Shown piece after piece: positions 14,701 to 53,985 of a stretch of DNA of 64,000 bases. Every line of letters starts with the position of its first letter. Position 1 is the stretch's first letter. Under the pieces are notes generated by a model. The model was not told the origin of the DNA. It saw only the letters and a list, made by a program, of their open reading frames with translations, and did no database searches. Source of the DNA: Blasia pusilla (Eukaryota); contig CM114271.1 of the NCBI GenBank assembly GCA_050084515.1, positions 13,578,001 to 13,642,000 of the forward strand, given 5' to 3'. Made by a program: the position numbers and the translations under genes.

Positions 14701-15124
14701 TTCCCCATCTGCAGCCCCAAACATCGTAACTATCACACACTATTGTGTGGATACAATAACCCCTGCCTCCTCACAATGACACATGTAACTAAGAGGAGCA
14801 GAAACTGAAACGACTCCACTTTTAGGTAGCAGATTTGATTGGGACGGGAAAATTAGCGTGGGTCCCTTATTGGTCTCCTAAATGGCTTTTTCTTCTCCCT
14901 TCCTCCATTTAGTAACCCCATGTTAAGAGTATAGATTATTTATGGAGGGCTTCACTTCTTTGGGAATTTTTTTCTTTCCAAGGTAACCCCCCCTTCCTCG
15001 CATTATAGTATAGATACTCCGTCTAATGCTCAGCGTCGAGGGCTTAGGAGTCGTTTTAGGCGGTGATGGGGTCGGTGTACTGACGCTCGTTCGCTGGCTC
15101 GCTCAGTGGGTCAATTCAGCAGCG

Positions 15125-18100
15125 ATGGAGTTTGTACGCTCAGGAGCGGATAGGGATCTTTTACAGCTTCCGCCGGTGCTAATTCTGGTAAAATTTGAGC
15201 TTAACATGTGAATGAGTTCCTTAAACCCTCGGGCTCGGGCCCTTTCGTTCTTGCAATCGTATGCATGCTTGCGATGGAGAACACATGTGGCTCGTCAGTT
15301 GCGCAATTGATGTAAGGCGATTCTTTCTCGTGACGGATCTCCTTGGTGTCTCTGGAACTTGGCAGCCGGCTCTGTCTATAGGGAATGCGGGGCAACTGGC
15401 CACGGATCTGCTCATTTCGACGCGTTCTGTGACCAGGGCAGGATTTCTGGACGATTCGTTGGTACTGGCGTGCGTCGGGAACGATCCTATAGGTCCGCTT
15501 GCGGTGGGAGCACTGACTGTGGCTCTGGAGGGTACGTATCCCCAGAAGGAGACGGCAGCTCAATGCCGCGAAAGGGAGGGTTTTTCGGTGGATGTTGCAG
15601 TCTGGGGTCTTGAAAGAACGAAACTTTTGTGACATCGACCAGCTTTGATGAAGTAGTCGGTTCTTGTAATGTGACTGCGCTATAAGCCTTGGAAGTGGTA
15701 CTCCAGTTTTACAGTTGAGCTAAGAAGCCCTTGCAGTGTCAGGAATCATGTATGGCAGAGTAGTAGGGTTCTTGAGGTCCTACTCACACTGCGGACATTA
15801 AAACTGACGTTCTTCTGATAATTTTATCACTGTTTGCTCGGCAGTTTTTGAAGACGTTGGAAGTGGACTGGCAATCGTGCAGCAGCGAAGTCCGGTTGCG
15901 AAGGTGCAGCTTTTGTCTAACGCTGTCCGTTCTAGATTTTGGTGTTGAGGAGTCGCACCCAAAATTTTTCCTGCTTCTATAGCACCCATTGATGCTGAGA
16001 GAAATTGTTCTGGACCAGATCTTATGGGAAGATTGTGATGTCACAAGTTCTTGCATATATTGTTAAGGTAGAACGGGAATAGCTGCTTGGGCACTTCACG
16101 GACCTGGTTGAAAGAGATCGAATCATGATATTTGATTCAATACATTCCGTCGTATTGATGGTCTTCTCATTTCCACCCCTATGTGGTGTAGGGGTTCTCT
16201 TTGAGTTCATGTGTAGTCTATCTCTGGACCTCATGGATTTGCTGTAAATTCTTTGACCTCTCTCTCTCTCCTCTCATATGGTACTTTCTTCACTTGTTCT
16301 TCTCTCTACACCCATCCCAGTCTCAATCACCGTCCAACCAGGGCGCGGGGTCTATGTTCGCAAGGCTACGACAGGCACTACTTAATGAGTACAGTCTCTC
16401 ACATACAGTTCTCTGTCTTTGAGGTTTCTAAAAGTAGTGCGACTCTTGGTGCAAAAAATTAGTACTATGACTGCAAGGAGTGGCTCATAGAATGGGGTAT
16501 CTCCATCGATGACCTGCCTACAGTCACTCACCAGGACCGGGCTGAACAATTACACAGCAATTACATTTCCACCAACTGGGGTCGGCACCAGTGGCTTTGG
16601 GAAACCAGAGGGAATACATCTCACAAAAATGGAGAGAGAATGTGGCGCTACCACACTCTCATGAACACCGGCAGATCCATGCGGCAAGCCTCTTACAGCT
16701 CTGCCCCCATTCCCAGTAAGTGAGAGATTCCGATGTGGCTCAACTGACCTTGAGATTGAGAAAGGAAAATTCTCACAGAATAAAAGGGAGGACAGATTGT
16801 GTAGATTTTGCAACACGGGGCTCGTTGATGATGAACATCATCACCGCTTCGACTTCACCTTTCACAGTCAAATTAGGCTTGACTTCCCGGATCTCTTAGC
16901 TCACCCGGCCCTCAAGGTCTCGAATTCATGGCTAGGCAAAATCATATTCAGATTCCTAAATTCTTGCTTAGCTGTGTTAAGACTAGGGAAAATCACTTGG
17001 CTCAATGGACCTCTTAGGCCCTTGCTGGTGCTTTGCTTGGTCTTTCTTCAAATTGTTGTTAATTCGCAAAACTAAGTCCCATGGCTCTGTGGGGTCCCCG
17101 TAGACAATAAATCTATTCATTCATTCATTCTCTCTCACTCGCAAAGCAGGCCAAATCTTGATGAAAAAGGTTCAAGAGATTGTCCAAGTAACCAAGCTCC
17201 CAGCAGGGCCTGAACTGTGGGAGCAAGATGAGAAAGCATCTGTGGATACCACAACCAAAGCAGTGGGCAAACGCTCACAGCAGAACAGCACGGAGGAAGC
17301 CATGAAAATATCTGACCTCTCTCTTTTGACGGTATATCCTAAAAAGGCAGAAATGAAGAACTATTTGCGGGGAACCCCTTGCTTGGGAACCTGGCTCAAG
17401 TTCAAGTTTAGGACAGGGACAATCCCCTTGAACCACAAGAAAAGCAGGATGGGAACACAACTAAATTCTTGCGCCTTGTGTGACAATGGGGATGAAACCT
17501 CTAGTCATTACTTGGTCTCCTGCACAAAATTCACAGCACACAGAGCAAGAGCATATGCTGATATTGCTAAATTGTTCATCACATTCAGTAGCCTTGATTC
17601 ATTGCCCAAAGCTGCTGCACTGGTAAGTAATGTCTATTGGGGATCCCCAGGGGAGGCAGCTGGAGACAATGGACTCCCATCGCCAATGAGATCAGAACTA
17701 GGTGTGGAACCCTTGGAGGATAGGCGTGACATTGCCAAGTTGAAATGGCGGAGGCATCTGGAGACAATGGACTCCCATCGCTATCCTAAAGAGGTGATGG
17801 GGAAAATATGGATCCAAAGAAGACCCATAAAGCAGGCCAAATCTTGGACGAAAAAGGTTCAAGAGATTGTGCAAGCATCCAAGCTCCCAGCAGGGCCTGA
17901 ACTGTGGGAGCAAGATGAGAAAGCATTCGTGGATACCATAACCAAAGCAGTGGGCAAATGCTCACAGCAGAACAAGATGGAGGAAGCCATGAAAATGTCT
18001 GACCTCTCTCTTTTGACGGTATATCCCGAGAAGGCAGAACTGAAGAACTATTTGCGGGGAACGCCTTGCTTGGGAACCCGGCTCAAGTTCAAGTTCAGAA

Positions 18101-21100
18101 CGGGAGCAATCCCCTTGAACCATAAGAAAAGCAGGATGGGAACACAACTAAACTCTCGCGCCTTGTGTGATGAAACCTCTAGTCATTACTTGGTCTCCTG
18201 CGCAAAATTCACAACACACAGAGCAAGAGCATATGCTGATATTGCTAAGCTGGTAGTACCAGAATTGTTCAACACATTCAGTAGCCTTGATTCATTGCCC
18301 AAAGCTGCTGCACTGGTAAGTAATGTATATTGGGGATCCCAATCAGGTTAAGTAGATGGTGTGGTGAAGAGTTTCTTGGTTGACACTTGGAAGCTCCGCA
18401 CGAACACGTTGTTTGGTCAGCACTCACACTATATGAGAGTGTCTCCCTCCTCTCATGTGGTATCTTCTTCACTTGCTTCTCTCTCTACACCCATCCCAGT
18501 CTCAAGCACCGTCCAACCAGGGCGCGGGGTCTATGGTTGCAAGGCAACGACAGGCACTACTTAATGAGTACAGTCTCATCCCAGTCTCAAGCACGGTCCA
18601 ACCAGGGCGCGGGGTCTATGGTCTCTCTGATTGGGGATGACCTCTCTCAGGTCAGACATTTTCAGCCATGAAAATGTCTGACCTCTCTCTTTTGACGGTA
18701 TATCCCGAGAGGGCAGAACTGAAGAACTATTTGCGGGGAACCCCTTGCTTGGGAACCCGGCTCAAGTTCAAGTTCAGGATGGGGGCAATCCCCTTGAACC
18801 ATAAGAAAAGCAAGATGGGAACACAACTAAACTCTTGCGCCTTGTGTGACGATGGGGACGAAACCTCTAGTCATTACTTGGTCTCCTGCGCAAAATTCAC
18901 AACACACAGAGCAAGAGCATATGCTGATATTGCTAAGCTGGTAGCACCAGAATTGTTCAACACATTCAGTAGCCTTGATTCATTGCCCAAAGCTGCTGCA
19001 CTTGTAAGTAATGTCTATTGGGGATCCCAATCAGGTAAAGTAGATTGTGTGGTGAAGAGTTTCTTGGTTGACACTTGGAAGCTCTGCACAAACACGTTGT
19101 TTGGTCAGCACTCACACTATATGAAGTGTCTCCCTCCTCTCATATGGTACCTTCTTCACTTGCTTCTCTCTCTACACCCATCCCAGTCTCAAGCACCGTC
19201 CAACCAGGGTGCGGGGTCTATGGTCGCAAGGCTACGACAGGCACTACTTAATGAGTACAGTCTCTGATTGGGGATCCCAATCAGATAAAGTAGATGGTGT
19301 GGTGAAGAGTTTCTTGGTCGACACTTGAAAGCTCTGCACAAACACGTTGTTTGCTCAGCACTCACACTATATGAGAGTGTCTCCCTCCTCTCATATGGTA
19401 CCTTCTTCACTTGCTCCTGTCTCTACACCCATCCCAGTCTCAAGCACCATCCAACCAGGGCGCGGGGTCTATGGTCGCAAGGCTACGACAGGCACTACTT
19501 TAATGAGTACAGTCTCTCTCTGTGTGGTGTATGATTTTGAGGAATTGTCGTGCAAGATTTAAGAAGGAACAGTGAATCCCACAAGTCTTGTCAAATAACA
19601 GTTTCTTCATAGTACACTTCTACTTTCCATGTGTGTTGTAATCAGGGAATGATGATCGAATATGCAAGGCATGTTGCCGAGTTGGCAGAAAGCATGGGCT
19701 GCAAAGAGGTTATAATACTGTCCGGGTTCGATTCTGGTAAACGAGACAGACAAGAGATGGTTGGGTATGTGGTCAAATCAGCTGATTGTGGTTACAGAAA
19801 TCAATCTGGCTGCCTACTCAGATTTTTTACCTTGGTCATGAAAATGTGCAAGTACTGACCATAGCATGCCTTAGGGTTCATCATTGGCTTACCTTCTCCC
19901 ACTATATACATGCATTCTCGCAGAATTCAGTGGGTAGTCTGAAGTTAGACAGCTACAGGATAGTCCAACTCACATGTCTTTTGAGTAGTATCAAGTTCAC
20001 AAAATCACGAGTCTCCTCTGGATGAACATGGAATCATGAGCCAGTGCAAAGAAGTGAAATTACAGCCATCTGTTCTAGCACACTCCACCTAGGCATGAGT
20101 TGAAGGAGTTGACAACTCATGCCTATTAAGCCACAGAGCAGTCTACTGGATTTGATTCTAGTAATGATTCCTGGCTTGGATGGACTCCTGATATATTCAA
20201 TTTCCTATTGCACTCACATAATGAGCCCCGATGATGACATATATACATGATGCCACTGTGCCTTGCAGACCACAAATTTTTTACGTTTCAAATGAGTCAG
20301 ATGTTGCAATCTATGAGCAACTGGGGTGGAAAAGACTTGCCCAGCAAAAATTGTTGGATCAGCCAGGTCAGGTGGATCAAGTTCAGGCTGATGACCTTGC
20401 AGGCCCAAGCGACAAGACAGTACCCTTGACTGAAGAGACTTACTATGCTGGGTTGCCATTCTCATTGTTGTATACTAGCTGCAAGGTACTTGTAGATACC
20501 AACCTGCAGTACATAGTGGTCTTTATATCTAATTTATGATGGTGAATTGCATGCATAGTTTTAGAGAAAGTGATTTGGTCAGGAGAAATTGCAAAAATAA
20601 GCCTTACTTCTTTTGTTCCTTGGTCTGAGCTAAACAGTAGTCCTCTTTGTGAGTCTACGTAAGGTAGTCCTGTTCAAGACCTCATCATTGATTTCAAGAT
20701 GGGCTAAGGTTTCAATGTTTCACTTTGATGTCAGAAGCTCAACAACCCCCTAACCCCCCCCCCCTCTCCTCACTCTTCTTCCTCCTTCCTCCACTACCTG
20801 GACAGCTTCCAATCACATGTCTTGCATGAGTGTCTAATTTTGCTTCTTATATCTGTGACACAAATGAAACTCACACAATGACTACCTGCAGGCCCGAGGG
20901 TTGAAGGTAACATGCTTGCTCACATTCTGTGGGGAAGGAGATAATATACCTGATGCCTTCTTTCTTGCGGACTCCCTTCAGCAGATGCTAGAAAAGAAAA
21001 GCGGTAATGAACCAGGTAATCAGCATATCCTCAGATTGGTTCATTGCTTTCTTTACTCATTGAAGGTTACCTTGATTTTGGATTATTATTGAATCTTTTT

Positions 21101-27779: not shown

Positions 27780-29110
27780 GAATCTACACCAGTCGTTGGA
27801 CCTACTTACACATCTAGTGTTTGGAAATGAGGTTCTTCAACGTTGATGAGTACAGTTGATATATCCACATCACTATCCTTTTCATCTAGTTTTGCTACTT
27901 ACACTTGTTCTGGTTGAAGAGCCTTCTCCTTGATAGAGCTTGAGAGGGAAACTATTGATTTCAACCTTGAGAACATTGTTGGAGTAGGGGGTTTTGGTTT
28001 AGTTTATGAGGGTTGCCTCAATGATGGACTCATAATAGCACTGAAAGTGCTAAGACGGGATGATGAGAAAGGGGATTGTGAGTATTTACTTGAAGAAAAG
28101 TTTTCAAGGAGCCTTCATCATCAAAATTTGGTAAAATTTCTCGGAATCTATGCAAAGGATAGATTCCGATCTTTAGTTTATGACCTCATCTCAAATGGCA
28201 TTGTGGAGTCACACTTGCATGGTCCAGATGTAGTGAATCCTCTCAACTGGGATGCTCGTCTCAAGATAGCCCTTGGATCAACTCTCGTACTTGCCTACCT
28301 ACACGAGGATTCCAATCCCCGTGTAATTCATTGTGACTTGAAAGCAAACAAAATTTTGTTGGAGGAATATTTTGCTCCCAAAATATTTGAGATCGGTCTT
28401 GCAAAAGTGGCATCTAAAGGGGGTGGCGACCATATCTCGTGATTATTAATGGAAACCTTTCGTTATGTGGCACTTGAATATGCCATGACATGGCACCTTC
28501 TAGCGAAGAGTGATGTTTACATTTATGGTGTTGTCCTATTGGAGCTCCATTCTAGAAGGAAACCAGTGGATATAGACATATCCCCGTGGGCAAAGAAATT
28601 TGGTGACATGGGCACAACCCCTTCTCACCACTTATGAAGGAATGGACTTGTTGTTGGATCCAATTCTACAAGATAGTGTACCATTAGACCACGTTGCAAG
28701 GGTAGGAGCCATATCCTACATGTGTGTGCAACCCAAAGTTTGACATCAGTCTTTCAATGGTGAGGTCATCTAAGCTTTGAAACTCATCTACAATGATTCA
28801 GATGCCAATGATGGGAGGGCCTCAATGAATGGGAGTCAGACAGGAGATATGTGTATGGGAACAAGGGATCATCCTTTTCCCCGATCCTTTCACATGCTAA
28901 ATAGTGAACCAACAAATGACTTCAACTCTAGTCCAACTGAAAGCTATGATTTCAAACCTGCAAGGCCACTCTCAGCTTCTACTATAATGTCACAATCTTG
29001 CAGATTCATTCTCCTAATCCCAGGGAACTCTTAAGGTCCTTCACAAGACATAGTGCTTTTGGACCTTTTAGGACCACCAAAAGTAATCTTGTCCGATACA
29101 AAGTATGAAA
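27780..29110 (+). pseudogene. Receptor-like Ser/Thr kinase (ALE2/extensin-like RLK) kinase-domain pseudogene, intronless
   Basis: 'VGVGGFGLVYEG', 'LHHQNLVK', 'VESHLHG..PLNWDARLKIALG..LAYLHEDSNPRVIH', '[15 protein letters not shown]'. Catalytic motifs are decayed (HCD, FEIG), with stops and frameshifts. Confidence 0.88.
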
Positions 29111-29173
29111 CTCTAGAGGTGGTACTATGTGGTCGATATATCCAAATCTCAGTCATTTTCAACTAGTTTTATT

Positions 29174-29301
29174 TGTCGTGCGCATACACATCGCTACACA
29201 ACATACATGGCTGTCATCGAACACACACACAAACACACACGATCCCATGCTAACTCATGGCATCCATACACAGAGGCGAGAAGTACAAAAATATCTCCAA
29301 T
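29174..29301 (-). repeat. Terminal repeat segment Y2 (128 bp)
   Basis: Near-identical to 29799-29926 (tgtcgtgcgcat...aaatatctccaat). Confidence 0.95.
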
Positions 29302-29796
29302 AAAGTAAGATCCAATGTCTCTCTACACCATCTCACACCATAGCTCTCAAAGGTGTGGACTCTCTCTCATGTCAAACCAAACCCACTCTCCTAATGAGAG
29401 GCTTGTGTTACACTCACAAGGCAAGAGACCATAACTCCGCCGCCTCATGCCAAGAGGTTCAACAAAGAGAGAATGAGCCCTCAAGCTCTCTCTCCTTGAG
29501 GTATACCCCTCCCCTCTCCCAAGCTCTCTCCATGGTAACCTATGCTCCCAAGTCACCTCTTTGGCTCTTGACCTGATGTAGGAGGTCAAGGCCCACTTAT
29601 CAAAAATAGAAAGTCAATGATCACCAACATGGAAACTTACCCGAAATAGTAAGTTTCTCTATATTGCTCCAAATGAGCCGAAACAAAGGGGAAACCCGCG
29701 GCCTCAACAGGTTATTCTCGACCTCTTGGGCATGTCCTCCACTACTCGTGAAGACGCTCTGCTAGATCCCACCGATCTATCTTAACACTCGTGACA
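29301..29796 (-). repeat. Terminal repeat segment X2 (~496 bp)
   Basis: Near-identical to 38704-39200 (taaagtaagatcc...cgtgaca). Confidence 0.95.
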
Positions 29797-29798
29797 CT

Positions 29799-29926
29799 TA
29801 TCGTGCGCATATACATCGCTACACAACATACCTCGCTGTCATGGAACACACACACAAACACACACGATCCCATGCTAACTCATGGCATCCATACACAGAG
29901 GCAAGAAGTACCAAAATATCTCCAAT
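29799..29926 (-). repeat. Internal repeat segment Y1, directly after polypurine tract
   Basis: Copy of 29174-29301. PPT 'taagggggag' on the minus strand at 29927-29936. Confidence 0.93.
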
Positions 29927-30112
29927 CTCCCCCTTAGCTGATGGTTAGGTCCCTCTAACTCTAGATAGCCATCTATCCCCATCTATCAAGACAAACATCT
30001 CTAGGACGCTAAGAGCATAAAGGCCGGGTGCTCATGTGACCCCATCGTTAGTCGCCTTCATGTCATCCATGTCACTGAAAAAGTTGGAATCAAAACCTAC
30101 CTAGTATTTCCT

Positions 30113-30260
30113 CTATGTACATCTGGGACACATCCATCATCCCCGAGGAATCCTAGTGAGAGGTGGCGTCAGACATGCCATATGCCAATCTCTCGAACAT
30201 CCATCACAAACTAGCATCGTGGCCGCACCACGGGCAGAACCACACAACATATAACGCAAG
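30113..30260 (-). pseudogene. PHD finger at integrase C-terminus
   Basis: '(Y)MLCGSARGAATMLVCDGCSRDWHMACLTPPLTRIPRG*WMCPRCT' fits C4-H-C3, with the first Cys mutated and one in-frame stop. Confidence 0.88.
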
Positions 30261-33180
30261 CCTACAGGATCTACTGCTAAGCTTGGATCTACTATACAAT
30301 CAATGTTAAGAAGGTGACATGGCGCACAACGACGCACATGGTCCTTCCATACCATACCATCGCGTCCCTCCAACAAGAGAACACCGGATGGCAAAATGTC
30401 ACGCACTCTCAAGATAGTGCGCCCTACAATCACATCCAACGTCGTCGGTGCCGTCTACTGCACTGACGACGTTGATGTTCAGTAGACATAATCTCCTTGA
30501 TGAAACCTCTGGATAGTTGGTCGATAACCACCACCCCGAATAGTCGCATACCTCAACGTATCTCAATGCTGCGCAATCGCCAAGTTCTCGAACGCCATGG
30601 GCATCACTCTCCGAAACAACTCAGCCCTCTGAGAACATGCTCGCACCCAAACATCTGGGTCATGAAGGTCTAGCATCTCACCAGCATCTCGATGAATGGC
30701 CGCAGATAAATCTGGCTCTCGGCCATAAAGTAGCAAGTACGGTGAAAAAGACGCTAAGGATGCCTGCCTGCTGAATCTGTATCTCATCGCCAACCATGGC
30801 AACTGGAGGTCCCAATCTCCTAGGTGACCTCTATGCAAGCCATACTTGTGTAAACCCCTCTTCACCGTTTGCACAACTCTCTTGGCTAATCCCCCATTCG
30901 CCTCGGGATGATCTCGCGAAGTCGTACGGTGGTCGATCAGTGCCTGATCACACAAGGCCTGGAACTAACTGCAAAACTCGGTACGCTGGTCTATCAACAC
31001 CTCAGCCGGTGTGCCATAATGACTGAGCACTCTATCAAGTAAGGAATAAGCTACTCCCTCACTCGCTTTGTCAGGCAATACAACCAACTCGATCCACTTC
31101 GAGAAGTGCTCGACCATCACCAACACATAACGACTGTGACGCTCCGTCAAAGGCGAAGGTCCTGCAAAATCCAAACTCCATCTATACCCTAAGCCCATGA
31201 TCCGTAATGGATGCAACTGTGGAGTTGGAGCATTGAACGATGCTCGAACCCGATCACACACCATGCACCTGGCAACAAACTGCTGAACATCAGTCTCCAT
31301 GCCTCGCCACCAATCTTGAATCTGGAGCAAGCTGTATGTCCGCTTCACCCCAAAGTGACCCAACTCCTCGTGGGCATGCTGCACTAGTCGTGCTCTCTGT
31401 GAAGTATGCGGCACTACGAGTACTCTGCCATCCTCCCAAACCCTCAAAACATGTGTCCCCTCCCAACGGAACCGTCTGGCCCGCTGTAGGATCCGATCCC
31501 GCTCTCTAGCATCTACGGTGCTCACAGCGGTGCCAGTACGAAGGTACTCCAAGACTACTCCATCATCATGAATATCTCGACCACTTGTCGTCTCCTCATT
31601 GGCCTCGGGATCCAAGGACTCTCCACTAGACCTCACCATTGAAGTCTCCACACTCTAGCTCTCCATAGCCAACATGCCTAAATAGGCTGACGCGTGCCAT
31701 CCTGGCACCGACTCCTCATCACTCTCTCCATGCCATCGAGCTCCATTCGCATCTCGCTGACTCGGGAATGGGTTACGACTCAACTCATATGCATCCTGGT
31801 TGAGCGTCCCAGGTCTATGTACCACCTGAAAATCATACTCCTGCAACAACAGAGCCCATCTCGCAAGCTTCCCTATAAGCTTGTCGGACTCCATCAACCA
31901 CTTCAGTGGTTGATGATCAGTGATGATGGTAAAGAGGTTGCCGAATTAGTAACACCTGAAATGCATGACAGCCCATACCGCAACCAAGCACTCACCCTCA
32001 TACGAGTTGTACTTTGCCTGTGCAGCGTTGTTCGAGCGGCTAGCGTAAGCCACCACGAGCTCCCTACCCTCATCATCATGCTGGGTGAGCGCCGCTCCAA
32101 GCCCCAACATGCTCCAATCTGTGTGCAACTGGAAAGGACGTCCCCTGATTGGTCTCCTCAAGATGAGCGCGGACGTCAACCTATCCTTGAGCAACTGAAA
32201 TGCTCGCTCCTGCTCATCCCCCCAGTGCCACTCGTGATCCACCTTGGTGAGCAAGGTCAGCAACTTCACAATCGAACTGAATCCCTCGACGTACCGCCGA
32301 TAGAAGTTCGCCAATCCCATGAATGCGCGAACACGGCTCACATGTGTAGGGTGTGGAATGTGTGAGATAGCCTCTACCTTCGTCTGCTGAACACCAAGGC
32401 CCCCTGGGTATATCGTATGACCCAAGTACTCAATCTGGTCGTAGAAGAACTTGCACTTGCCGGAATGTAGTTTCAGCCCATGCAATTACAATCGTCAAAA
32501 CACCTCCTCTATATGTCGCTCATGCTCCTCAACCGTGGCGCTAAAGACTATAATTTTATCAATATAACACCTAGCAAAATCCAGACCAGACAAGATCCTA
32601 TCCATGACCCTCTGAAACTCAACCCGTGCATTCTTTAACCCAAATGGTAAGAACCGCCATTGGTACAAACAATCCTTCCCGTGAGGATTGATCCCCCAAA
32701 ATGCCGTCTTCTGCCTGTCCTCCAATCTGATAGGCAACTGATGATATCCGGCTCGCAAATCCAATAAACTGAAGACCTTTGCGTGACCAATCGCATCAAA
32801 GATATCCTCAAGGATGGCATGGCATACCTATCGGACTTTGTGTGCCGATTGATAGGTCGGTAATCCCCACACATCCATCTATTCATCCAATTGCCATGCA
32901 CATCCTTCTTGGCGGGCATGATAGTGGCAGATGCATACTCCCCATGCGACATCTCCACTAGTCCTGCTCTGACCAAGTCCTGGCTTTTACTCTGAATCAG
33001 ATCCCTCTCCATATCACTATACCTGTAGGGTCGTCAGAAGATTGGCGTATCACTTGACAACTCAATGCGGATCCCCGGTCCCTTCAGCGTACCCAAATCC
33101 TCCATGCTAAACGCAAAGCAGCTCCTATAACTCCTGAGGAACTGATGTATTCGGCGCCGCTCTCCTCTTGTCAACTTAGG
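30260..33180 (-). pseudogene. Gypsy pol: RT-RNaseH-integrase (frameshifted)
   Basis: ORF pieces 32635-33012, 32495-32764, 31946-32485, 31655-31897, 30965-31651 and 30563-30955 carry canonical motifs in Gypsy order. Confidence 0.93.
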
Positions 33181-33329
33181 GCCCATATCTGGCTCCCTAG
33201 TTTCCATCGTGACTACGGTAGGACTCTCCGGCGCGGGTATCTGTGGTTGCTATGGTACAACCCCATCTCGAACAACAACACTTGGCCGCTCTCTTGCAGC
33301 CAACTGCAAACTCTGATCTCCTCCACGTG

Positions 33330-34290
33330 CAGTGCCCGAAACCACACTCAATGTTCTGGCCTGACCTAAGACATGGCGTCGTGATGCCTCTGACATTGAC
33401 GGTAGTGCCGTCAATCCTATGGGAAATCCCATCGCTCGCTCTCTCTCATCGGCGTTGGGCTCCACCAACCGCTGAACTTGGTCTTTCCAAACCAAGCCAG
33501 GACTGACCTCCTTGTATGCATAGGAAGTGGGAAAACTCACAAACATAGGCAAGGCTGCCCGCGGCCTGCCTACCCTGTTGACCACAATCAACGATGGTCA
33601 ATCATCGTGCCTCACTGCTTGTGATCGACGACCTGGATCGAGAATGGAATCCACTAACAAATAGGAGGGGCGCTCCACTCTCACATACGCCCTCCGTAAC
33701 ACCGTATGGGGCACCAAGTTGGTCCACCATAGACGCGGGCGATGGGCTCTAGAACCTACACTCGCCGCATCCAAGAACACTGCTGGGCCGATCCAAGCAC
33801 CCACCTGAAGAGCACTCATCACTACCCGTGACGTGGAGTCTCCTAAGATCGGCACATTCTTCAGAATATAGGTTGGAGAACAAGACTGATGCTCCTGCAA
33901 TTGCCGTAAGACCCTCAACATCTCCCAAAACAACCTGAACCAAGTGTCAGCCAACCCGCTGCATCGTCCAGCACTTCATTGGCCCTGACATGGCCAACCG
34001 GAAATGACCAAATCAATGGTCCCTACCCGCTCTAAGTCCTACGCCCCCAACAACGAAATATCCCTCAGTAGGGAACCCTTGTACTACGGACGCAGATAAT
34101 AAGTGGAGAAAACGTAGGTGTAACTACGCCACATGTCGTAGTGAAACGCGCCTCGTAACATCATCACTCTCCACATACAAGTACTTCTGCACTCTCACTC
34201 ATGTCTGCACAACAGCAGCTAACCTGGTGCTAATCCCTCCAAAGAGATCTAACACTCGAATACCCTCCTCCAAGATACACCACACAATGG
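33330..34290 (-). pseudogene. C5 cytosine DNA methyltransferase domain (DNMT3/DRM-like) within pol
   Basis: Motif I 'IRVLDLFGGIS' (~34230-34265); motif IV 'IDLVISGWPCQG' (33982-34017); motif VI 'YILKNV' (E to K); motif VIII 'AHRPRLWWTNL'; motifs IX-X 'ERERAMGFP...RRHVLGQA'. All in order. Confidence 0.92.
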
Positions 34291-34599
34291 GTGTGGTATC
34301 GAAGGGTGTCATTGTAGCACTCCCAGCTACCTCGGGTTCCTCAGACCTATCATGCTCCGGTGCAAAAGCCTCGCTCCACGCGGTCTGCACGTGCTCATCT
34401 GCCAATCGTTGAAGCTCCTCAGTTGAGCCCCACTGCAGCTCCTCTCCTCCATGGAATGATGCGGCTACCATAACACTCCTCTCCATTGAAATGTCAGGAA
34501 AGGGATTATCTTTTGCATGGACATGTCCCTCGATCAAATCACTAGGCCAAGTGATGGCACTGCTAAATGCTGCCAAGGTCGCCATCTCTCCTAGCCGTT

Positions 34600-37180
34600 G
34601 CTCAATCACTGCACATGTGAATCGAACGGGTAATGAACTAAGGCGTCCATCACTTGACTGTCATCGTGGTCTGTACGACGTTGACTCCTCTCAAATATCC
34701 AGGGAAAACCCCATCGGGTATAACACAACTGTACCAACCAAGATGTCGTAGGACTTTGCATTAGTCACTATCACCTTGGCTCGCACCACGGACTCATCTG
34801 TAGGATGTCTCGGGAAAATCCTCATCACGACCTACTGTCGGGTGATATACTGTGTGGTACTCGCTCCACCCAAGGATGTCTGTATCTGGAATGGACAACG
34901 CTCCACATCGGCTCTCGTCAAGCCCAATCCTCTGAATGACGCTTTCCCCAACATCAGGGGTTGTGCTCCTGAATCCAACAAGACGCGTTGCGGACTAAAA
35001 GCTCTACCCTCGGGACTCACAAACTGGAAGACCTCTCCTTGGTTATCCAGCAACACAACACCAGGAGAAGCCATGGCACGCTCTATCGCGGGTCTAGCAA
35101 GCATCTCCGCCATCATAGCAGCCACAGCCTGCCATGAATCTGACGTGGACGGTCCGAGCATCTGCTCCAAAGGTAGGTCCATCACCTCCTCTGCAAGAAC
35201 TCCAACTCCACGCTCACATAGTGTAGCGGCCAGCCGAACAGCCTCGGCGGGCGTACCCGCCAACGTCATAACATCGGAAGCAGAAAATAAAGGAGTGCGG
35301 TACACAATGGTGGTCGCCCCCAACAACGTGCTCGACACGTGCCCCTCCTAAGCATCAACAATAGGAGTCGTCGCACTCGTTTCTCCCATCGCCTCCGTGC
35401 GTGCACACCAACAACATCACCAACTCTCCAGGAACTCTGATCAAGACCCATTGATGGGGTCCTCATCGCCTCAGACATCATGAAAGACTGAGGAAGCCTA
35501 GTCTTTTTCCTGGCTTCCCCTCGCTGTGGATCCAACTCTGCAGCTGCTCTACGCGTCACAATTGCGGCTGCCTCCATCTGGGCAGCCCCGCACATCCAAC
35601 CAGGATCCTTCATATCTCTGGCTGCTCCATATGATGTCGATGCCATGGATCCGACATTGGGTAATCTCAATGCCATAGCGGCAATCTGCTGTTGTAGCTG
35701 CTGTATCTGAGCAGCCATCCCAGCCTCATGTCCGGCGTCTCCCTCGGCCCGTCTAGGTGGTGGTACTCTACCTCCTCCATGGGCAGCTCCACCACCCTGT
35801 CGGGCAACTCTAGCTCCTCGTCCCCCAACGCGACCACCTGGTGCACGATCTCTAGGCCCACCTGGACCGGCTACTCGCTGTGGTGCCCTCTCGAGCCCTC
35901 GGTCCGGATGTAACTCAGGATGTAAACTAAAAATGGCGTGTGTATGACCATACCTCTGACAATAGTCACATTGATAACCTCCTGGTGCAGCACCATCTCC
36001 TCCTCTATGCTAAGGCACACGTCCATAACCCTGACGAGTGCAATCGCGCTGATGATGGGCTCCACCACATGACCAACAAGTAATAGTAGGCGGCTGCTGT
36101 TGAGCCGCATATGAAGGCGCAGGTCTTTGTGGCACGGGCTCTCGGTATCCTCCCTGAGCTCGTGGTGCCACAGTTGACCTATCTCGGAGTCCACGTTGTT
36201 GCATAGGTGGTGCAGACAATCGTGATTGCTCTCGCCCATAACCCATGGTGGCTACGCTCTCCTCCGCCATGTTGCGCTCAATGTTCTCGGCGGTCCTAAA
36301 AACATCTCTCAACGTAGGGGAGGTATTCATAAGAAGCACCCCTCCGTACCCGTGTCCGCAGGGTCCGATCCAAGTCTGCGTACCATGACTGGACAGCTTG
36401 AGCGTTTATCACCCCCTCAGTGATGTTGATCAACCGGCGCAAGCGAGTGTAAGCCTAACGCAAACTCTCACCCGGGCACCTCTGGAATTCGTGGATGCTC
36501 CGCAACTTCTCCGTCCGTACCCTCTGATAGCTCGCCCTCAACTCAACAAAGAACTCAACGACGAGGTTGAACCTCGGACAAACCCGACTAGACGGTGCAA
36601 CTGCTCGAGTGCAAGTGACCCCTCCTAAAACATCACTAGTGGAAGAGGAAGTAGCCTCTCCTGAATCCTCCTCCTCATCTGGGAACGGCTCAGTCCATGA
36701 TACATAGTGTGGGTCATAGTAGAGTCGCCATGCCTCAATCTCCTCGACATATCTGTGGGAGAACTCATGGTAATCGTCCATGGATGGCCCCTCTAAATGC
36801 TGGAACATACCGTTCCATGCTGTAAACGGGTTGAACTCTCTAAAGTTTCTAGCCCGCTGTGAGTCACACTAACTCCTAAACTCCGCAATGAAGTCGTGTA
36901 TCTCTATGGTGCCTACAGCACCCGAAAACCTACGCGGTCCTCTACCCCGGTTGTCCATCTCGTACGCCCAACTAGTAGGACCACTCAATGTGTACGATGG
37001 ATCACTAAAACACTTGTGCGAGGTTTCGAGGGTCTCCACGTGAGAGACCACCTCGATCTCCTTCTGTGTCGTCTTCAGATAAGGGGGAGCGTGTAGACCC
37101 TCCACAAGTACTCTCAAGTCCACTACCTCGCCTCTCAAAATCTTGAAAGGACATCGTGATGGCCCTTGTGCCCCTCTCAC
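34600..37180 (-). pseudogene. gag (zinc knuckle) and aspartic protease of the Gypsy element
   Basis: 'FQRCPGESLR', 'CWSCGGAHHQRDC', a second knuckle-like 'CDYCQRYGH', 'RVLLDSGAQPLMLG', 'YDILVG'. Confidence 0.85.
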
Positions 37181-38703
37181 ATGATCACTCTCAACCTTGC
37201 GAGTAATCCCTCAATTACTCATCCCAAACATGTGGCACTCGATCTACACTCTCCCTCCCCGAGACGTGTAACGTGCGGCAACAAGCGGCGTGATACGGCA
37301 AATCGACCAGGCTATCATCTCATTGACAACCTACCCTCAACTCCAGACATCCCACACAGGTCTATGTCCCCTAAACCTCATACATAAGTGATCCTCTCAG
37401 CATCCACACAACCCAATATCCCCAAATAAACTACCCAAATCCCAGAATCCCTCATGCGTGTAAGGTAAATGACCAAAATGGATAACCTGAACACATGTCG
37501 ATGTCGCTCCTCAGCAACTGCAAATCTCAACCCAAATTGGTTGTGGAGAAAACTCCTCCAATCATCAAGTCATACTCCTCCCGTACTGACACTACTCAAA
37601 ACCTCTCGATAGACAGTGCGGTTCCAGTGGAACGGTGCGGCGTTGCAGGCGGCACGGAACGGCTACGAACGACACGGCCCTCGATGGTGGGACGTGGCAC
37701 TCGGAGGCATACCCTCCTCAATCAACAATAAACCCACACTGTGCCCCACAATGATGATGCGGCTCCGCGATAGAGACGGTGCGGTGCCGCCACGAGCGAC
37801 ACGACGCGGCAATCGGCGGCGCGTTGCGGCTACGGGCGTCACGGCACAGTACTCGATCGTCGTCGAGCGGCTACCAATTACAACATAGCAGCATGAAATC
37901 AAAACTCAAACACCATAACCAGAGGTCATATGCCATCATTGGTTGATGACGAAATTGCGATGACGGTGGCGGTCAAAACAAAGTACGTGGTGGCGAAGCA
38001 AGTCAGAGAATCAACGAACGTCGTGAAAGACCCTCCACTCCGTAACGACGGCAATGGCAACCAAAGGGTGGAAAACGGATGGTGGACCATTGATGGTGAG
38101 GGTTGATTGTCGATGGCAGAATGTTGACGGCGACGGCCCCCGCCAGCGTGGCGCGTGATTTAGGGTTTGAACAATTTAACCCTAAAAATCGCCTAGCAAT
38201 GGCAGTTTTGCAAGATTGACCATAACTTTTCACTCGCAACTCCAAATTGCGCATTGTTTGTTGCACAACATGCACAACTTCACGATCTACGACAGTGTGA
38301 ACAAATAATTGGAATTGGACATTCCAGAAAAAAAAATTGAAGGGGACTGTCGTGAAGCCCAATATCTCTTTCTCCTACAAAAAATTCGACAGCGCTTCTG
38401 CGCTGATTTCTCCCAATGAAAATGTAAAACCTGTAAAAATACAAATCAGCAAGCTACATGGTGCTCCCGAGAGCATCAGCATGGGGCAACCCGCCCCCAT
38501 ACTCAATCCCTATCAAAAATTGGGTAGCGCTTCCGCGCGCCACTCTTCCACACGAAAAATCGACAAATGCAAAGAACAATCAAAGCTGCCCTTGCTCCGG
38601 TGAGCACTCCCATGAGCTTCTGAATGGGAAACAAGGTCCCCAACCTACAAAAACAATGAGTGACCAGCGAGCTCCCCCATGAAACTCTCTCATTCTCTCT
38701 TTG

Positions 38704-39200
38704 TAAAGTAAGATCCAATCTCTCTCTACACCATCTCACACCATAGCTCTCAAAGGTGTGCACTCTCTCTCATGTCAAACCAAACCCACTCTCCTAATGA
38801 GAGGCTTGGGTTACACTCACAAGGCAAGGGACCATAGCTCTGCCGCCTCATGCCAAGAGGTTCAACAAAGAGAGAATGAGCTCTCAAGCTCTCTATCCTT
38901 GAGGTATACCTCTCCCCTCTCCCAAGCTCTCTCCATGGTAACCTATGCTCCCAAGTCATCTCCTTGGCTCTTGACCTGATGTAGGAGGTCAAGGGACACT
39001 TACCAAAAAATAGAAAGTCAATGATCCCCAACATGGAAACTTACCCGAAATAGTAAGTTTCTCTATATTGCTCCAAATGAGCCGAAATGAAGGGGAAACC
39101 GGGGGCTTCAGCATGTCATTCTCGACCTCTTGGGCCTGTCCTCCACCACTTGTGAAGACGCTCTGCTAGATCCCACCGATCTATCCTAACAATCGTGACA
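38704..39200 (-). repeat. 5' terminal repeat segment X1 (~497 bp)
   Basis: Copy of 29301-29796. It is not followed (on the minus strand) by Y or by a TGG-starting PBS. Confidence 0.95.
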
Positions 39201-39213
39201 TATTGAATTTCAT

Positions 39214-39645
39214 TTGGACTTCTTGTTGGATTCAATTCTAAGAGATAGTGTATCATTTACCACGTTGCAAGGATAGCAATCATAGCCTTCGTATATGTGC
39301 AACCCAAAATTTTACATCAGCCTTTCATGGGCGAGGTCATCCAGGCTTTGAAACGCGTCTACAATGATTCACATGCCATTGATGGAAGGGGCTCAATGAA
39401 TGGGAGTCACATAGGAGATTTGTGTAGGGGAACATATACATGCCAAATACTGAACCAACAAGTGATTTCAACTCTAGTCCAACTAAAAGTTGTGATTTCC
39501 AACCTGCAAATCCATTTTCACCTCCTATTGTATTGTCAGAATCCAACAGATTGAGTCACCAACTCTCAAGGTCCTTCAGAAGACATAGTGATAGTGGATC
39601 TCTTAAGACGACCAAAAGTAAGCATGTCTGTGTGATTGGAACTTG
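39214..39645 (+). pseudogene. Second, diverged copy of the RLK C-terminal segment
   Basis: Aligns by eye with 28643-29095; 'QPFMGEVIQALKRVYNDS'. Confidence 0.85.
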
Positions 39646-44180: not shown

Positions 44181-46132
44181 TCATTAAGTAGCGTATGTCG
44201 TAGCCTTGCGACCATAGACCCCGCGCCCTGGTTGGACGGTGCTTGAGATTGGTATGGGTGTAGAGAGAGAAGCAAGTGAAGAAGGTACCATATGAGAGGA
44301 GGGAGAAACTCTGATATAGTGTGAGTGCTGACCAAACAACGTGTTTGTGCGGAGCTTCCAAGTGTCAACCAAGAAACTCTTCACCACACCATCTACTTTA
44401 CCTGATTGGGATCCCCAACAGACATTACTTACTAGTGCAACAGCTTTGGGCAATGAATCAAGGCTACTGAACGTGTTGAACAATTCTGGTACTACCAGCT
44501 TAGCAATATGAGCATATGCTCTTGCTCTGTGTGTTGTGAATTTTGCGTAGGAGACCAAGTAATGACTAGAGGTTTCGTCCCCATCATCACACAAGGCACA
44601 AGAGTTTAGTTATGTTCCCATTCTACTTTTCTTATGGTTCAAGGGGATTTCCCCCATCTTGAACTTGAACTTGAGCCGGGTTTCCAAGCAAGGGGTTCCC
44701 CGCAAATAGTTCTTAAGTTCTACCCTCTGGGGATATACCGTCAAAAGAGAGAGGTCAGACATTTTCATGGCTTCCTCCGTGTTGTTCAGCTATGAGCGTT
44801 TGCCCATTGCTTTGGTTATGGTATCCACGAATGCTTTCTCATCTTGCTCCCACAGTTCAGGCCTTGCTAGGAGCTTGGATGCTTGCACAATCTCTTGCAC
44901 CTTTTTTGTCCAAGATTTGGCCTGCTTTACGGGTCTTCTTTGGGTCCAGGTTTTACCCCATCACCTCCTTAGGATAGCGATGGGAGTCCATCGTCTCCAA
45001 GTGCCTCCGCCATTTCAACTTGGCGATATCACGTCTATCCTCCAAGGGTTCCATACCAAGTTCTGATCTCACACCAACTTAGGCTGTTTGTAAGGAAGTT
45101 GACATCATACCTCGAAATGCCCTCACCTGCACACCTTCAAGCCTATCCCTTTGTTTGGTGTTGGCATCCCACACTGCTGCCTTGTATTCCTACGAGGGAC
45201 GAATGGTATGCAAAATGACACAGCGCTTTACTTTTGATGTGATATCTCAGTAGTCTTCTTAATGTGTACATCCCACATGCCATCTTACGAGAATTATATG
45301 CCCAGATAGGTGTATGTAGCCACACAGGGGATCTCTTGGTCACCCCAGTACCACTGTTGGTCTTGGTCCTCCTCCTTGCCATTGAAAATCATCACACTGC
45401 ACTTTAGTACATTTGCCTCCATGCCCCACATGTCACGCTAGAGTTTGGTCAAGGATATCATCTCTTGGAGTTTCTCTCCTATTTCCTTGAGGCCACCAAA
45501 GTCATCAGCAAACATGAGGGCAACAATAGAGTTGTTGCCCACATGTATGCCTAGTCCACTATCCTCCATTTCTTCCAATAGGGAATTCACAAAAATGTTG
45601 AAGAGGGTGGGGGAGAGCGAGCATCCTTGAGCCACTCCTTGCTTGATGTCGAATGTCCCACTCTTTTGGCCATTCACCACAACTCTACTCCTTGTGTTCT
45701 GGTATATCTTCTCCACCACCCTCCACATTTTCCCTCTCAACCCCACCTTCCACAAGCTATAAGAAAGCCCGTCACGCCATACAATGTCGTATGCCTTCTT
45801 GAGGTCCAAGAAGAAGCAATAGGTGGGTTTCCCCTCTTTTTTCCTACCCTAGATGATCTGACTGAAGGTGAAGATGTGGTCCACGCATCCTCGGGCTTGC
45901 CAGAAGCCAGCCTTGACTTCCTTGATGACAAAATTCTCCTCCAGGTACACAGAGATCCTATTGTTGAGTATACGGCAAAGGAGATTCGTAACATCACTCA
46001 GCAATGTAATACCCCTGTAGTTTCTAGGGTCTTCTCGCTCACCCTTCTTGAAGAGGTTCACGATGACTCCCATCCGCCATCTTTGTGGGATAACTTCTGC
46101 CCACCAGACCAGGTTGAAGAGACTCACTAGAG
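44087..46132 (-). mobile_element. Family A LINE, 5'-truncated, with (TC)n tail
   Basis: RT motifs 'NYRGITLLS', 'DLKKAYD', 'GVAQGCSLSPTLF', 'LMFADD'; C-terminal CCHC. Tail 44087-44177. Confidence 0.92.
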
Positions 46133-52139: not shown

Positions 52140-53912
52140 ATGCACATACGCATCGCTAGACAACATACATCATTGTCATCGAATATACACACAAACACAC
52201 AAGATATCATACTGACTCATGACTCCAAATATCTCCAATAAATCACAAGCACTCAAAATGTCTCACCATGTGCACACAAACTAAATCTCTCTCTCTCTTC
52301 TATATATATAGAAGGTAGATGATGAGGTGGAGTTGGCAACCCATATAACGATTGGTTCTCCCTAGCTGAGGTGGGAGCAGCAATCAAAGAACTTGTGAAC
52401 CACAAAGTAGGCGGTGGTGATGAGCTTGTGAATGAATTGTTGAAGTATGGAGATGCTGCTATGGCTCGTTCTCTAGTGAGTCTCTTCAACCTGGTCTGGC
52501 GGGAAAAAGTTATCCCACAAAGATGGCGGGTGGGAGTCATCGTGAACCTCTTCAAGAAGGGTGAGCGAGAAGACCCTAGAAACTACAGGGGTATTACATT
52601 GCTGAGTGTAGTTGGGAAGCTCTTTTGCCGTATACTCAACAATAGGATCTCTGTGTACTTGGAGGAGAATTCTGTCATCAAGGAAGGCCAGGCTGGCTTC
52701 CGGCAAGCCCGAGGATGCATGGATCACATCTTCACTTTCAGTCAGATTATTCAGGGTAGGAAAAAAGAGGGGAAACCCACCTATTGCTTCTTCTTGGACC
52801 TCAAGAGGATATACAACACTGTATGGCGTGATGGGCTATCTTATAGCTTGTGGAAGGCGGGGCTGAGAGGGAAAATATGGAGGGTGGTGGAGAAGATGTA
52901 CCAGAACACAAGGAGTAGAGTTCTGGTGAATGGCCAAAAGAGTGAGACATTCAACATCAAGCAAGGAGTGGCTCAAGGATACCCGCTCTCCCCCACCCTC
53001 TTCAACATTTTCCTGAATTCCCTATTGGAATAAATGGAGGATAGTGGACTAGGCATACGGGTGGGAAACAACTCTGTTGTTGCTGATGACTTTGATGGCC
53101 TCGAGGAAATAGGAGAGAAACTCCAAGAGATGATCTCCTTGACCAAAATCTGATGTGACACGTGGGGCATGGAGGCAAATGTGATGAAGTGCGTTGTGAT
53201 GATTTTCAATGGCAAGAAGGAGGACCAAGATTGAGCTCCCAGCAGGGCTTGAATTGTAGGAGCAAGATGAGAAAGCATTCATGGATACCATAACCAAAGC
53301 AGTGGGCAAACGCTCACAGCAAAACAGCATGGAGAAAGCCATGAAAATGTCTGACCTTTCTCTTTTGACGGTATATCTCGAGAAGGCATAATTGAAGAAC
53401 TGTTTGCGGGGAAATCCTTGCTTGGGAACCTAGCTCAAGTTCTAGTTCAGAACGGGAGAAATCCCCTTGAACCATAAGAAAAATAGGATGGGAACACAAC
53501 TAAACTCTTGCGCCTTGTGTGAGGATGGGGATGAAACCTCTAGTCATTATTTGGTCTCCTATGAAAAATTCACAATATACAGAGCTAGAGCATATGCTAA
53601 TATTGCTAAGTTGGTAGCACCAGAATTGTTCAACACATTGAGTAGCCTTGATTCATTGCCCAAAGCTGCTGCACTGGTAAGTAATGTCTATTGGGGATCC
53701 CAATCAGGTAAAGTAGATGGTGTGGTGAAGAGTTTCTTGGTTGACACTTGGAAGCTCTGCACAAACACGTTATTTGGTCAGCACTCACACTATGTGAGAG
53801 TGTCTCCCTCCTCTCACTTGCTTCTCTCTCTACATCCATCCCAATCTCAAGTACCGTCCAACCAGGGCGCGGGGTCTATGGTGGCAAGGCTACGACATGC
53901 ACTACTTAATGA

Positions 53913-53985
<73 letters not shown>

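Follow-up and report, generated by a model that had tools for sequence, protein, structure and literature searches.

A 64,000-nucleotide stretch of contig CM114271.1 (assembly GCA_050084515.1, positions 13,578,001 to 13,642,000 of the forward strand; hereafter the window) carries on its minus strand, at 29174-39200, a Ty3/Gypsy-type retrotransposon of about 10 kb. Between the protease (PR) and the reverse transcriptase (RT) of this element, we found the remains of a DNMT3-like cytosine-5 (C5) methyltransferase (MTase). It is very likely that this span is the decayed MTase domain of a Ty3/Gypsy-like Gag-Pol polyprotein, and that the element belongs to a streptophyte Gypsy-DNMT3 lineage residing in a liverwort-like host; the enzyme of intact copies may methylate the element's own DNA. 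The element is a new land-plant member of a lineage first described in the charophyte alga Klebsormidium nitens, and the kind itself has already been published.

All C5-MTase motifs reported in a preliminary description of the window, which had placed them in order on one strand at 33330-34290, were recovered within that span by three-frame translation of the minus strand, where the set extends over 33358-34249. Motif I (DLFGG, in the string VLDLFGG) lies at 34235-34249 and motif IV (GWPCQG, in ISGWPCQG) at 33982-33999. Motif VI is found at 33853-33861 as KNV (in YILKNVP), with the codon AAG (Lys) at 33859-33861 replacing the glutamate of ENV. The series continues with RPRLWWTNL at 33715-33741 (in HRPRLWWTNL), ERAMGFP at 33421-33441 (in ERERAMGFP), and LGQA at 33358-33369 (in VLGQA). 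Searched singly against Pfam, none of the three stop-bounded pieces of the domain gave a match at E ≤ 0.01, and the N-terminal piece bearing motif I had no match of its own even at E ≤ 10. The same description had proposed a hidden Markov model search with PF00145 on a corrected translation; the read-through of the frame 33253-34035, translated with X at two TGA stops, scored 26.8 bits with this profile (E 4.4e-6), above the curated cut-off of 22. A phmmer search against 1.84 billion representative sequences returned 1051 proteins at E ≤ 1e-3, 434 at E ≤ 1e-10, and 58 at E ≤ 1e-30, the best of which matched with E 8.5e-70 and 62% identity. The match is far above chance, and these sequence comparisons confirmed that the domain is real.

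The domain is present once in the window, as determined by tblastn with the Marchantia relatives P0163 and P0166, and it has decayed. Alignment with full-length relatives by tblastn placed a frameshift at about 34073-34083, and in-frame stops were found at 34199, 34124, 34039, 33976, 33598, and 33250. The S-adenosylmethionine (AdoMet)-binding motif I and the catalytic cysteine of motif IV are present, while the ENV glutamate and an open frame are absent. Because of the six stops, the frameshift, and the lysine in place of the ENV glutamate, this copy cannot make the MTase and, judged by its letters, is a dead member of the C5-MTase family. The earlier statement that it was inactivated by frameshifts is right as to the frameshifts themselves, one in the MTase and one in the RT at about 32809-32818, but it is incomplete, the six in-frame stops coming on top of them.

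The MTase is one part of a colinear series on the same strand, in the order gag (CCHC), protease, DNMT3-like C5-MTase, RT, RNase H, DDE integrase (IN), and plant homeodomain (PHD) finger. The position between protease and RT within a Gypsy pol, as first described, was borne out by Pfam, by tblastn, and by the domain order of relatives. From the 5' side of the element onward, its parts between the terminal repeats are as follows.

36970-38701, minus strand: leader separating gag from the 5' repeat, unusually long at about 1.7 kb and with no recognisable coding content.
35449-36943, minus strand: gag, located by open reading frames (ORFs) and tblastn; its CCHC zinc knuckle CWSCGGAHHQRDC lies at about 36040-36078.
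34832-35347, minus strand: aspartic protease (LLDSGA), located by an ORF and by tblastn with the PR-bearing regions of P0017, P0163, and P0166.
33250-34300, minus strand: remains of the DNMT3-like C5 cytosine MTase domain, broken by one frameshift and six in-frame stops; motifs I, IV, VIII, IX, and X are present, as is motif VI with K for E.
32495-33033, minus strand: RT (PF00078, E 7e-16), with a change of tblastn frame marking the frameshift at about 32809-32818.
31655-32485, minus strand: RNase H with the RT-RNase H connection (PF17919, 2.6e-27; PF17917, 5.7e-17).
30563-31654, minus strand: integrase, consisting of the H2C2 zinc domain and the DDE core (PF17921, 8.9e-16; PF00665, 1.7e-9).
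30137-30454, minus strand: PHD finger closing the integrase region on its C-terminal side (PF00628, E 9.5e-7; 29.2 bits, cut-off 24).

The gag ORFs of the window had no Pfam match, nor had the protease ORF 34832-35347 taken alone. In the gag region, tblastn aligned residues 9-210 and 416-488 of Marchantia P0163 to 36943-36344 and 35652-35449, respectively, and on the integrase side residues 1448-2181 of P0017 mapped to 32809-30536. We also looked for a chromodomain, as in chromoviruses. None was found at the C terminus of the window integrase, where the PHD finger stands instead, and PF00385 occurred among the precomputed domains of 1 of the 120 relative polyproteins listed. The PHD finger occupies the same place in the intact relative P0212. 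None of the seven leader ORFs matched Pfam at E ≤ 0.1, and hence no tyrosine recombinase was found there.

The same arrangement recurs among relatives. Named MTase-bearing relatives include proteins of Calypogeia fissa (62-65% identity) and ten gene models of Marchantia polymorpha (55-60%), and further ones come from Sphagnum, several Closterium strains, and Klebsormidium nitens. Marchantia P0163 and P0166 are colinear with the window over gag-PR-MTase-RT-RNase H at 43-61% identity in tblastn, P0166 itself reading MTase, RT, RNase H. The open PR-MTase-RT frame that the preliminary description had suggested looking for was seen in P0017, P0283, and P0212, where a single open frame runs from CCHC or PR through MTase, RT, and RNase H to IN; P0212 is 2358 amino acids long and, like the window element, has its PHD finger at the end. 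Among 276 MTase proteins collected, 32 had the order PR-MT-RT (MT, methyltransferase) and 157 the order RNase H-MT-IN(-PHD), and 87 were too short to tell. A scan of metagenome contigs with an alignment of six relatives yielded 78 loci. In 29 of the 37 loci of at least 8 kb, the MTase was followed by the RT on the same strand; the other 8 showed the end of the locus or a deletion.

Conservation within the family followed the catalytic residues. In an alignment of 50 relatives (27-66% identity to the first row), the catalytic cysteine and the ENV glutamate are invariant, and W, Q, N, both arginines of RxR, and other residues are conserved at 90% or more. The AdoMet motif is kept in the relatives as well. 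By pattern search, 3 of the 10 Marchantia models checked contain all six motifs. Motif IV varies among P0015, P0016, P0027, P0014, P0032, P0046, P0017, and P0212, with GWECQ in many and GWLCQ in one, the cysteine being kept throughout. Two findings had been named in advance as fatal to the preliminary reading, namely, its absence from other copies and the loss of the PC/ENV residues. Neither was seen, the domain standing between PR and RT in bryophyte and algal proteins and in the long metagenome loci, and the cysteine and glutamate being those invariant in the 50 relatives. The MTase is thereby shown to be inherited and conserved within the family, and this copy did not capture it on its own.

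We then aligned reads and contigs from runs of the same species label to the window at a likeness of at least 85%, dividing the element into 30 bins; runs labelled as air metagenome or as other organisms, in which small shares appeared, were left aside. Two DNA-contig runs covered all 30 bins with very large summed depths, which are not copy numbers, and contained from tens to more than 100 contigs per variant. The element family is abundant in the host. Two RNA runs also covered all 30 bins, with a depth of 22-60 in the MTase bins, and reads extended over the 1.7-kb leader. Only 11 and 15 of about 5,900-6,100 RNA reads were at least 99% alike to the window, so the RNA comes from sister copies. 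At the RT frameshift of the window, 47 of 56 and 33 of 42 RNA reads differed in length by one base; thus, the expressed sisters lack this frameshift.

These data bear on the idea that a piece of a host DNMT3 was caught once, in this copy alone. The summed depth of DNA contigs would fit such an event in being lower over the MTase bins (9,800-32,000) than over those of RT and IN (38,000-71,000), but the lower value may reflect relatives that lack the domain or a faster divergence of this region. Against it stand the PR-MTase-RT proteins of Marchantia, Calypogeia, Sphagnum, Closterium, and Klebsormidium, the 29 of 37 long loci, the sister DNA contigs and RNA reads of the host that cover the MTase bins, and the full support of the liverwort clade described below. 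We regard a single capture as next to impossible.

Two further features of the reads concern sister copies rather than the domain. An RNA-only joint, 32011->33082, skips 1070 bases and with them most of the RT; the two RNA runs contain 12 and 24 reads of it, with 9 and 14 start places, and the DNA contigs none. An intron was rejected as its explanation, as the ends are CT..CC on the plus strand, with at most three places of slack, and no GT..AG is found on the element strand. We take the joint to come from a template switch or from a deletion variant that is transcribed. At 37016-37093, joints of the opposite-strands type occurred in RNA reads (10 and 4) and, in one run, in 3 DNA contigs, pointing to a small inverted segment close to where gag starts in some sister copies.

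To the question of which MTase the domain resembles, sequence and predicted fold gave the same answer. Compared with solved structures, the window translation matched DNMT3A (6e-9), DNMT3B (4e-6), and DNMT3C (2e-5), while HaeIII, HhaI, and DRM2 reached only 0.04-0.1. A profile of six relatives sharpened this ranking to 2.6e-17 for DNMT3A, 9e-15 for DNMT3C, and 1.7e-14 for DNMT3B, as compared to 1.4e-8 for tobacco DRM, 2e-7 for DRM2, 2e-5 for HhaI, and 0.02 for DNMT2; in the same search of solved structures, DNMT1 was absent at E ≤ 1. An AlphaFold model was built for the relative P0160, which is 61% identical to the window translation, from a 50-sequence alignment (predicted local distance difference test 84.3, predicted template-modelling score 0.84). 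When this model was compared with the Protein Data Bank by Foldseek, all rows listed within ranks 1-50 were DNMT3A, 3B, or 3C, the best with E 1.7e-17 and a template-modelling score of 0.82 on the target. In the window translation and in the alignments of relatives, the motifs run I-IV-VI-VIII-IX-X, which is the canonical order without the rearrangement of DRM. The RxRxxWxNL and ERxxGFP strings had at first been called DNMT3/DRM-type; sequence and fold favour DNMT3A/B/C within that pair, in keeping with the unrearranged order.

With cellular DNMT3A, 3B, and 3C, the domain shares, beyond the best sequence and fold matches and the canonical order, a short region between motifs VIII and IX as well as the ERxxGFP and LLG(R/Q) motifs. 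It differs in its low identity, about 20-22% in structural alignments, in motif IV, where the window has GWPCQG and the DNMT3A alignment a GGSPCN-type sequence, and in its place inside a retrotransposon polyprotein without PWWP or ADD. PWWP and ADD are the companion reader domains of cellular DNMT3 in animals, and DUF3444 is that of plants. Neither PWWP nor ADD nor DUF3444 was detected by Pfam among the ORFs of the window or in full-length relatives, the sole reader domain being the PHD finger behind the integrase. By the ranking of E-values and folds, with trees of element-borne sequences only, the domain is DNMT3-like and not the orthologue of a cellular DNMT3.

Some Marchantia models of this family bear the name "DNA (cytosine-5-)-methyltransferase" in UniProt, as they might if the window held a cellular DNMT3 gene or pseudogene lying beside a Gypsy element or interrupted by one. 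The domain, however, is colinear with the element's other parts, on the same strand, free of introns, and confined to the interval between PR and RT inside a repeat unit flanked by target-site duplications. Intact relatives read PR-MTase-RT in one frame, and the companion domains of a cellular enzyme were not found. The chance that a cellular gene explains the span is therefore negligible.

To place the element among its kin, we computed a FastTree phylogeny of 232 MTase domains. All 155 sequences of the RNase H-MT-IN type formed one clade (support 97), which contained none of the PR-MT-RT type, and the window fell into a clade of 14 sequences (support 100) with Calypogeia and eight Marchantia sequences. 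A quick IQ-TREE run under a mixture model, on 54 chosen sequences (46 from the PR-MT-RT side and 8 as an algal outgroup), recovered the same split with a Shimodaira-Hasegawa-like approximate likelihood ratio of 97, the window clade with 100, a Closterium clade with 100, and the Klebsormidium sequence in a clade of three with 99. The group of 46, which is separate from the algal RNase H-MT-IN type, holds the window clade, Closterium, and Klebsormidium. The K. nitens protein GAQ93235.1 contains CCHC, protease, and MTase in that order and is 36% identical to the window domain over 240 amino acids (E 5e-39).

The host itself was approached through the GT92 ORF at 13468-14031, whose closest relatives are from Marchantia (60%), Riccia (56-59%), and Calypogeia (47%). 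The relatives of this ORF and the kin of the element, both from liverworts, support a liverwort-like land plant as the host, in line with the first description of the element as one from land plants.

The ends of the element and its repeats were read directly or by repeat comparison and are given in the order of the element strand.

39201-39204, no strand: right target-site duplication (TATT), read directly.
38702-39200, minus strand: A1, the 5' long repeat, reading TGTCACG...TTTACA on the element strand.
29927-29945, minus strand: candidate polypurine tract AGCTAAGGGGGAG (element strand), directly 5' of B1.
29798-29926, minus strand: B1, internal short repeat, directly 5' of A2 on the element strand, found by repeat comparison.
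29301-29796, minus strand: A2, the 3' long repeat of 496 bp, 94.2% identical to 38704-39200 over 497 columns.
29174-29301, minus strand: B2, the 3'-terminal short repeat of about 128 bp, with which the element strand ends in ...GCACGACA.
29170-29173, no strand: left target-site duplication (TATT), read directly and identical to 39201-39204.

The element begins and ends with TG at 29174 and CA at 39200, and TATT stands outside both, in agreement with the earlier claim that it is bounded by a target-site duplication. Its repeats follow the order A1 - internal - B1 - A2 - B2, that is, they are split direct repeats. B1 and B2 are 94.6% identical (29173-29301 against 29798-29926). Divergence is thus nearly the same in the A and B pairs, which would follow if both pairs were formed when the element inserted.

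The layout is not peculiar to the window. In the independent copy L044, the A repeats lie at 1679-2017 and 10353-10691 and the B repeats at 10238-10350 and 10693-10805; its ends are likewise TG..CA, reading TGTCAYGA... and ...GCACGACA as in the window, and are flanked by a 4-bp duplication, AAGG. The full A1-internal-B1-A2-B2 arrangement was also found in L055, whose ends are too decayed to read a duplication, and in L068, and a B-A-B series was present at the 3' end of L009, L033, and L049/L058. Immediately 5' of B1, the window, L044, L055, and L037 all have a purine tract (AAGGGGG). At the B1|A2 junction, L044 reads CA, two bases, TG, and the window nearly the same, with TA for CA.

Split direct repeats of the A1-B1-A2-B2 type, with internal repeats downstream of the coding region, are shared with the DIRS/PAT/Ngaro retrotransposons, as far as these are described in the available part of PMC4157794. 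We considered an identity with that group and rejected it, since only the repeat layout is common to both. The window element has a DDE integrase with H2C2, TG..CA ends, and a 4-bp duplication (TATT, and AAGG in L044), and no tyrosine recombinase was found in it. Tyrosine-recombinase retrotransposons of the DIRS/PAT/Ngaro group are not known to make a target-site duplication. We tentatively read the layout as that of a canonical element with a long terminal repeat (LTR) composed of B and A, whose order would have been shifted as though a two-LTR circle had been cut open where B meets A, at a junction resembling a palindrome. An alternative is a DIRS-like use of the internal junction as a template.

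Retrotransposons carrying a DNMT were reported by de Mendoza et al. in 2018 from Symbiodinium, together with a Gypsy-Dnmt3 in K. nitens (PMC5890265); the earlier statement that such elements were known from dinoflagellates and Klebsormidium agrees with the available part of that report. The K. nitens element, KnitGypsy-Dnmt3, had a Ka/Ks (ratio of nonsynonymous to synonymous substitution rates) below 0.2, and the authors assigned its acquisition to the "K. nitens lineage" (PMC5890265). The window element shares with it a Gypsy-type Pol and a non-rearranged DNMT3-like domain; its split direct repeats parallel the figure legend's description of DIRS-like repeats combined with Gypsy-like domains (PMC5890265). 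The domain order of GAQ93235.1 and its place in the group of 46 are further points in common, with the limit that GAQ93235.1 is unconfirmed as a published copy. The two differ in host, a charophyte alga as compared to a liverwort-like plant, in the fully supported bryophyte clade to which the window belongs, and in that the window copy is dead. When citing the Klebsormidium work, PMC12344493 and bioRxiv 10.64898/2026.05.21.726589 speak, in their available parts, of "streptophytes". In the literature on Marchantia gene identifiers and on liverworts or mosses with DNMT3 retrotransposons, we found none naming bryophyte copies, although the supplementary DNMT trees of PMC5890265 and PMC12344493 may contain some.

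Other MTase-bearing elements are more distant. A green-algal type, defined here by named database proteins of chlorophytes (Monoraphidium, Haematococcus, Chromochloris, and Cymbomonas) and many metagenome ORFs, has the Gypsy enzymes and ends in a PHD finger; its MTase is homologous (30-44% identity) but follows the RNase H, whereas that of the window precedes the RT. Our literature search found no paper that describes these RNase H-MT-IN elements as a group. SymbioDIRS-Dnmt3 and SymbioLINE-Dnmt of dinoflagellates and the EpiLTRs of Cymbomonas and Euglena are also retrotransposons encoding a cytosine MTase; according to the available parts of their descriptions, they belong to other element classes or DNMT clades, and the EpiLTR DNMTs are sister to DNMT4 and distinct from the streptophyte Gypsy-DNMT3 (bioRxiv 10.64898/2026.05.21.726589).

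Several observations weigh against the reading of the span as the relic of a self-methylating Gypsy-DNMT3 enzyme. The DNMT3 placement is one of E-value and fold ranking, the trees being of element-borne domains and not of cellular DNMT3, DRM, or DNMT1 sequences. In the metagenome loci, each of the 29 MTase segments of full length carries 1-23 stops, only 2 of the 46 loci of at least 6 kb have any ORF of at least 400 amino acids, and the intact frames (2138-2358 amino acids) are seen only as database proteins from other samples and never as DNA; the copies of the metagenome host appear to be all dead. In 34 decayed metagenome copies, the pairwise Nei-Gojobori ratio of nonsynonymous to synonymous substitutions (dN/dS) had a median of 0.57 for the MTase (interquartile range 0.49-0.66, 366 pairs), above the 0.44 of RT, 0.37 of RNase H, and 0.43 of IN, and a first pass on 16 copies had given 0.60; these values, all below 1 and with the MTase near the core enzymes, would suit constraint on the domain, but they come from non-independent pseudogene pairs of another host on a protein-guided alignment and are inflated by neutral decay. 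In the host of the window, the contig depth over the MTase is the lower one reported above, the RNA reads, almost wholly with the first mate on the plus strand, are sense to the element under an assumed usual stranded protocol, and those at 85-95% likeness could stem from related families. As for the repeat model, no primer-binding site was recognised next to A1, and the permuted-circle origin is an inference. Last, the domain of KnitGypsy-Dnmt3 gave no detectable DNA methylation in yeast, a result that its authors call inconclusive in the available part of PMC5890265.

The yeast result, the looser dN/dS of the MTase, and the relatives with EC or LC in place of the PC dipeptide would all suit a family that keeps the domain for a role other than DNA methylation, either to methylate RNA (the genomic RNA or the tRNA primer) or as a module of Pol that binds DNA or chromatin or is structural. 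RNA methylation was itself raised by the authors of PMC5890265 for another retrotransposon DNMT. On the other hand, human DNMT3B, the control of the yeast assay, failed as well (PMC5890265), which leaves that assay inconclusive. The catalytic cysteine, the ENV glutamate, and RxR, invariant or nearly so in the 50 relatives, would be needless for a purely structural role, and the best fold and sequence matches are with the DNA-methylating DNMT3 enzymes, while DNMT2, a tRNA methylase, reached only 0.02. We therefore consider a non-DNA role unlikely and retain the reading of a self-methylating element.

In intact copies of such an element, the MTase would be translated with Pol and then freed by the protease. 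The freed enzyme may methylate cytosines of the element's DNA, either in the complementary DNA (cDNA) before integration or in the new insertion, and the PHD finger of the integrase may read histone tails, choosing or marking the insertion site. Together, MTase and PHD finger would let the element arrive already bearing host-like methylation, as de Mendoza et al. proposed for such elements (PMC5890265, available part).

The lineage is now found in liverwort-like and moss genomes and in Closterium, which moves the question of the enzyme's role into land plants. So far, published retrotransposons that carry an enzyme normally employed for their own silencing come from dinoflagellates and from one charophyte alga. 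Gene models of the family exist in Marchantia polymorpha, which is a transformable model plant. Since annotations list such copies under the name "DNA (cytosine-5-)-methyltransferase" or as hypothetical proteins, the number of DNMT3 genes counted in bryophytes can come out too high. The combination of split direct repeats with a DDE integrase and a target duplication also clashes with the textbook link between this layout and a tyrosine recombinase.

A wider proposal is that the family is an old, still transcribed, streptophyte-wide lineage equipped with a writer (the DNMT3-like domain) and a reader (the PHD finger), which inserts as circularly permuted copies with a 4-bp duplication, as though the integrase cut a two-LTR circle at an internal junction resembling a palindrome. 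We hold this to be possible but doubtful. The copies of Closterium, moss, and liverwort point to either an older origin or transfer. If Klebsormidium, Zygnematophyceae, and bryophytes do share the family, the "K. nitens lineage" is too narrow a setting for the acquisition; DNMT3 would then have been captured before land plants arose and not within Klebsormidium. Were the proposal true and intact copies active, an element-encoded DNMT3 would methylate its own cDNA and perhaps host DNA in trans, Marchantia polymorpha included.

The sequences on either side of the element resemble each other. Over 28643-29093 and 39215-39628, the two flanks show a likeness of 76%, rising to 79-85% in blocks, and both represent the C-terminal tail of a receptor-like kinase pseudogene. 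A protein-kinase pseudogene lies at 27918-29034 on the plus strand (Pkinase, 1.3e-18), with an in-frame stop at the ORF boundary 28442/28443 and no visible introns in the kinase domain. We rejected the likeness of the flanks as a part of the element or as the mark of a giant duplication, since they are far more diverged than the element's repeats (94%). Because of this greater divergence, the flanks are best taken as an older tandem duplication into which the element was inserted later. The CpG observed/expected ratio is 0.75 in the element and 0.40-0.49 in the flanks; we set it aside as a sign of methylation decay, as it is uninformative beyond the element being younger than its surroundings.

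The remainder of the window contains one clear host gene, as far as noticed, and fragments of other mobile elements. The host gene is the GT92 gene or pseudogene, in pieces at 13468-14808 on the plus strand (PF01697, 1.5e-8). At 3318-3752, also on the plus strand, there is a fragment of a Helitron replication protein (Helitron_like_N, 3.4e-12), and the ORFs downstream of it, up to 4963, are without a Pfam match. Fragments of a non-LTR-type RT were seen at 8377-10682 and 52326-53033 on the plus strand and at 45438-45848 on the minus strand, with RVT_1 at 7.7e-23 in 52326-53033 and a weak match at 8797-9282. A family of zf-RVT-like cysteine ORFs is present in four copies, of which 17104-18351, 18641-19267, and 53446-54030 are on the plus strand and 44184-44609 is on the minus strand. 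The motif reached 1.9e-5 in 17104-18351, an ORF that consists of two tandem units, and the four are probably the C-terminal part of the same non-LTR family.

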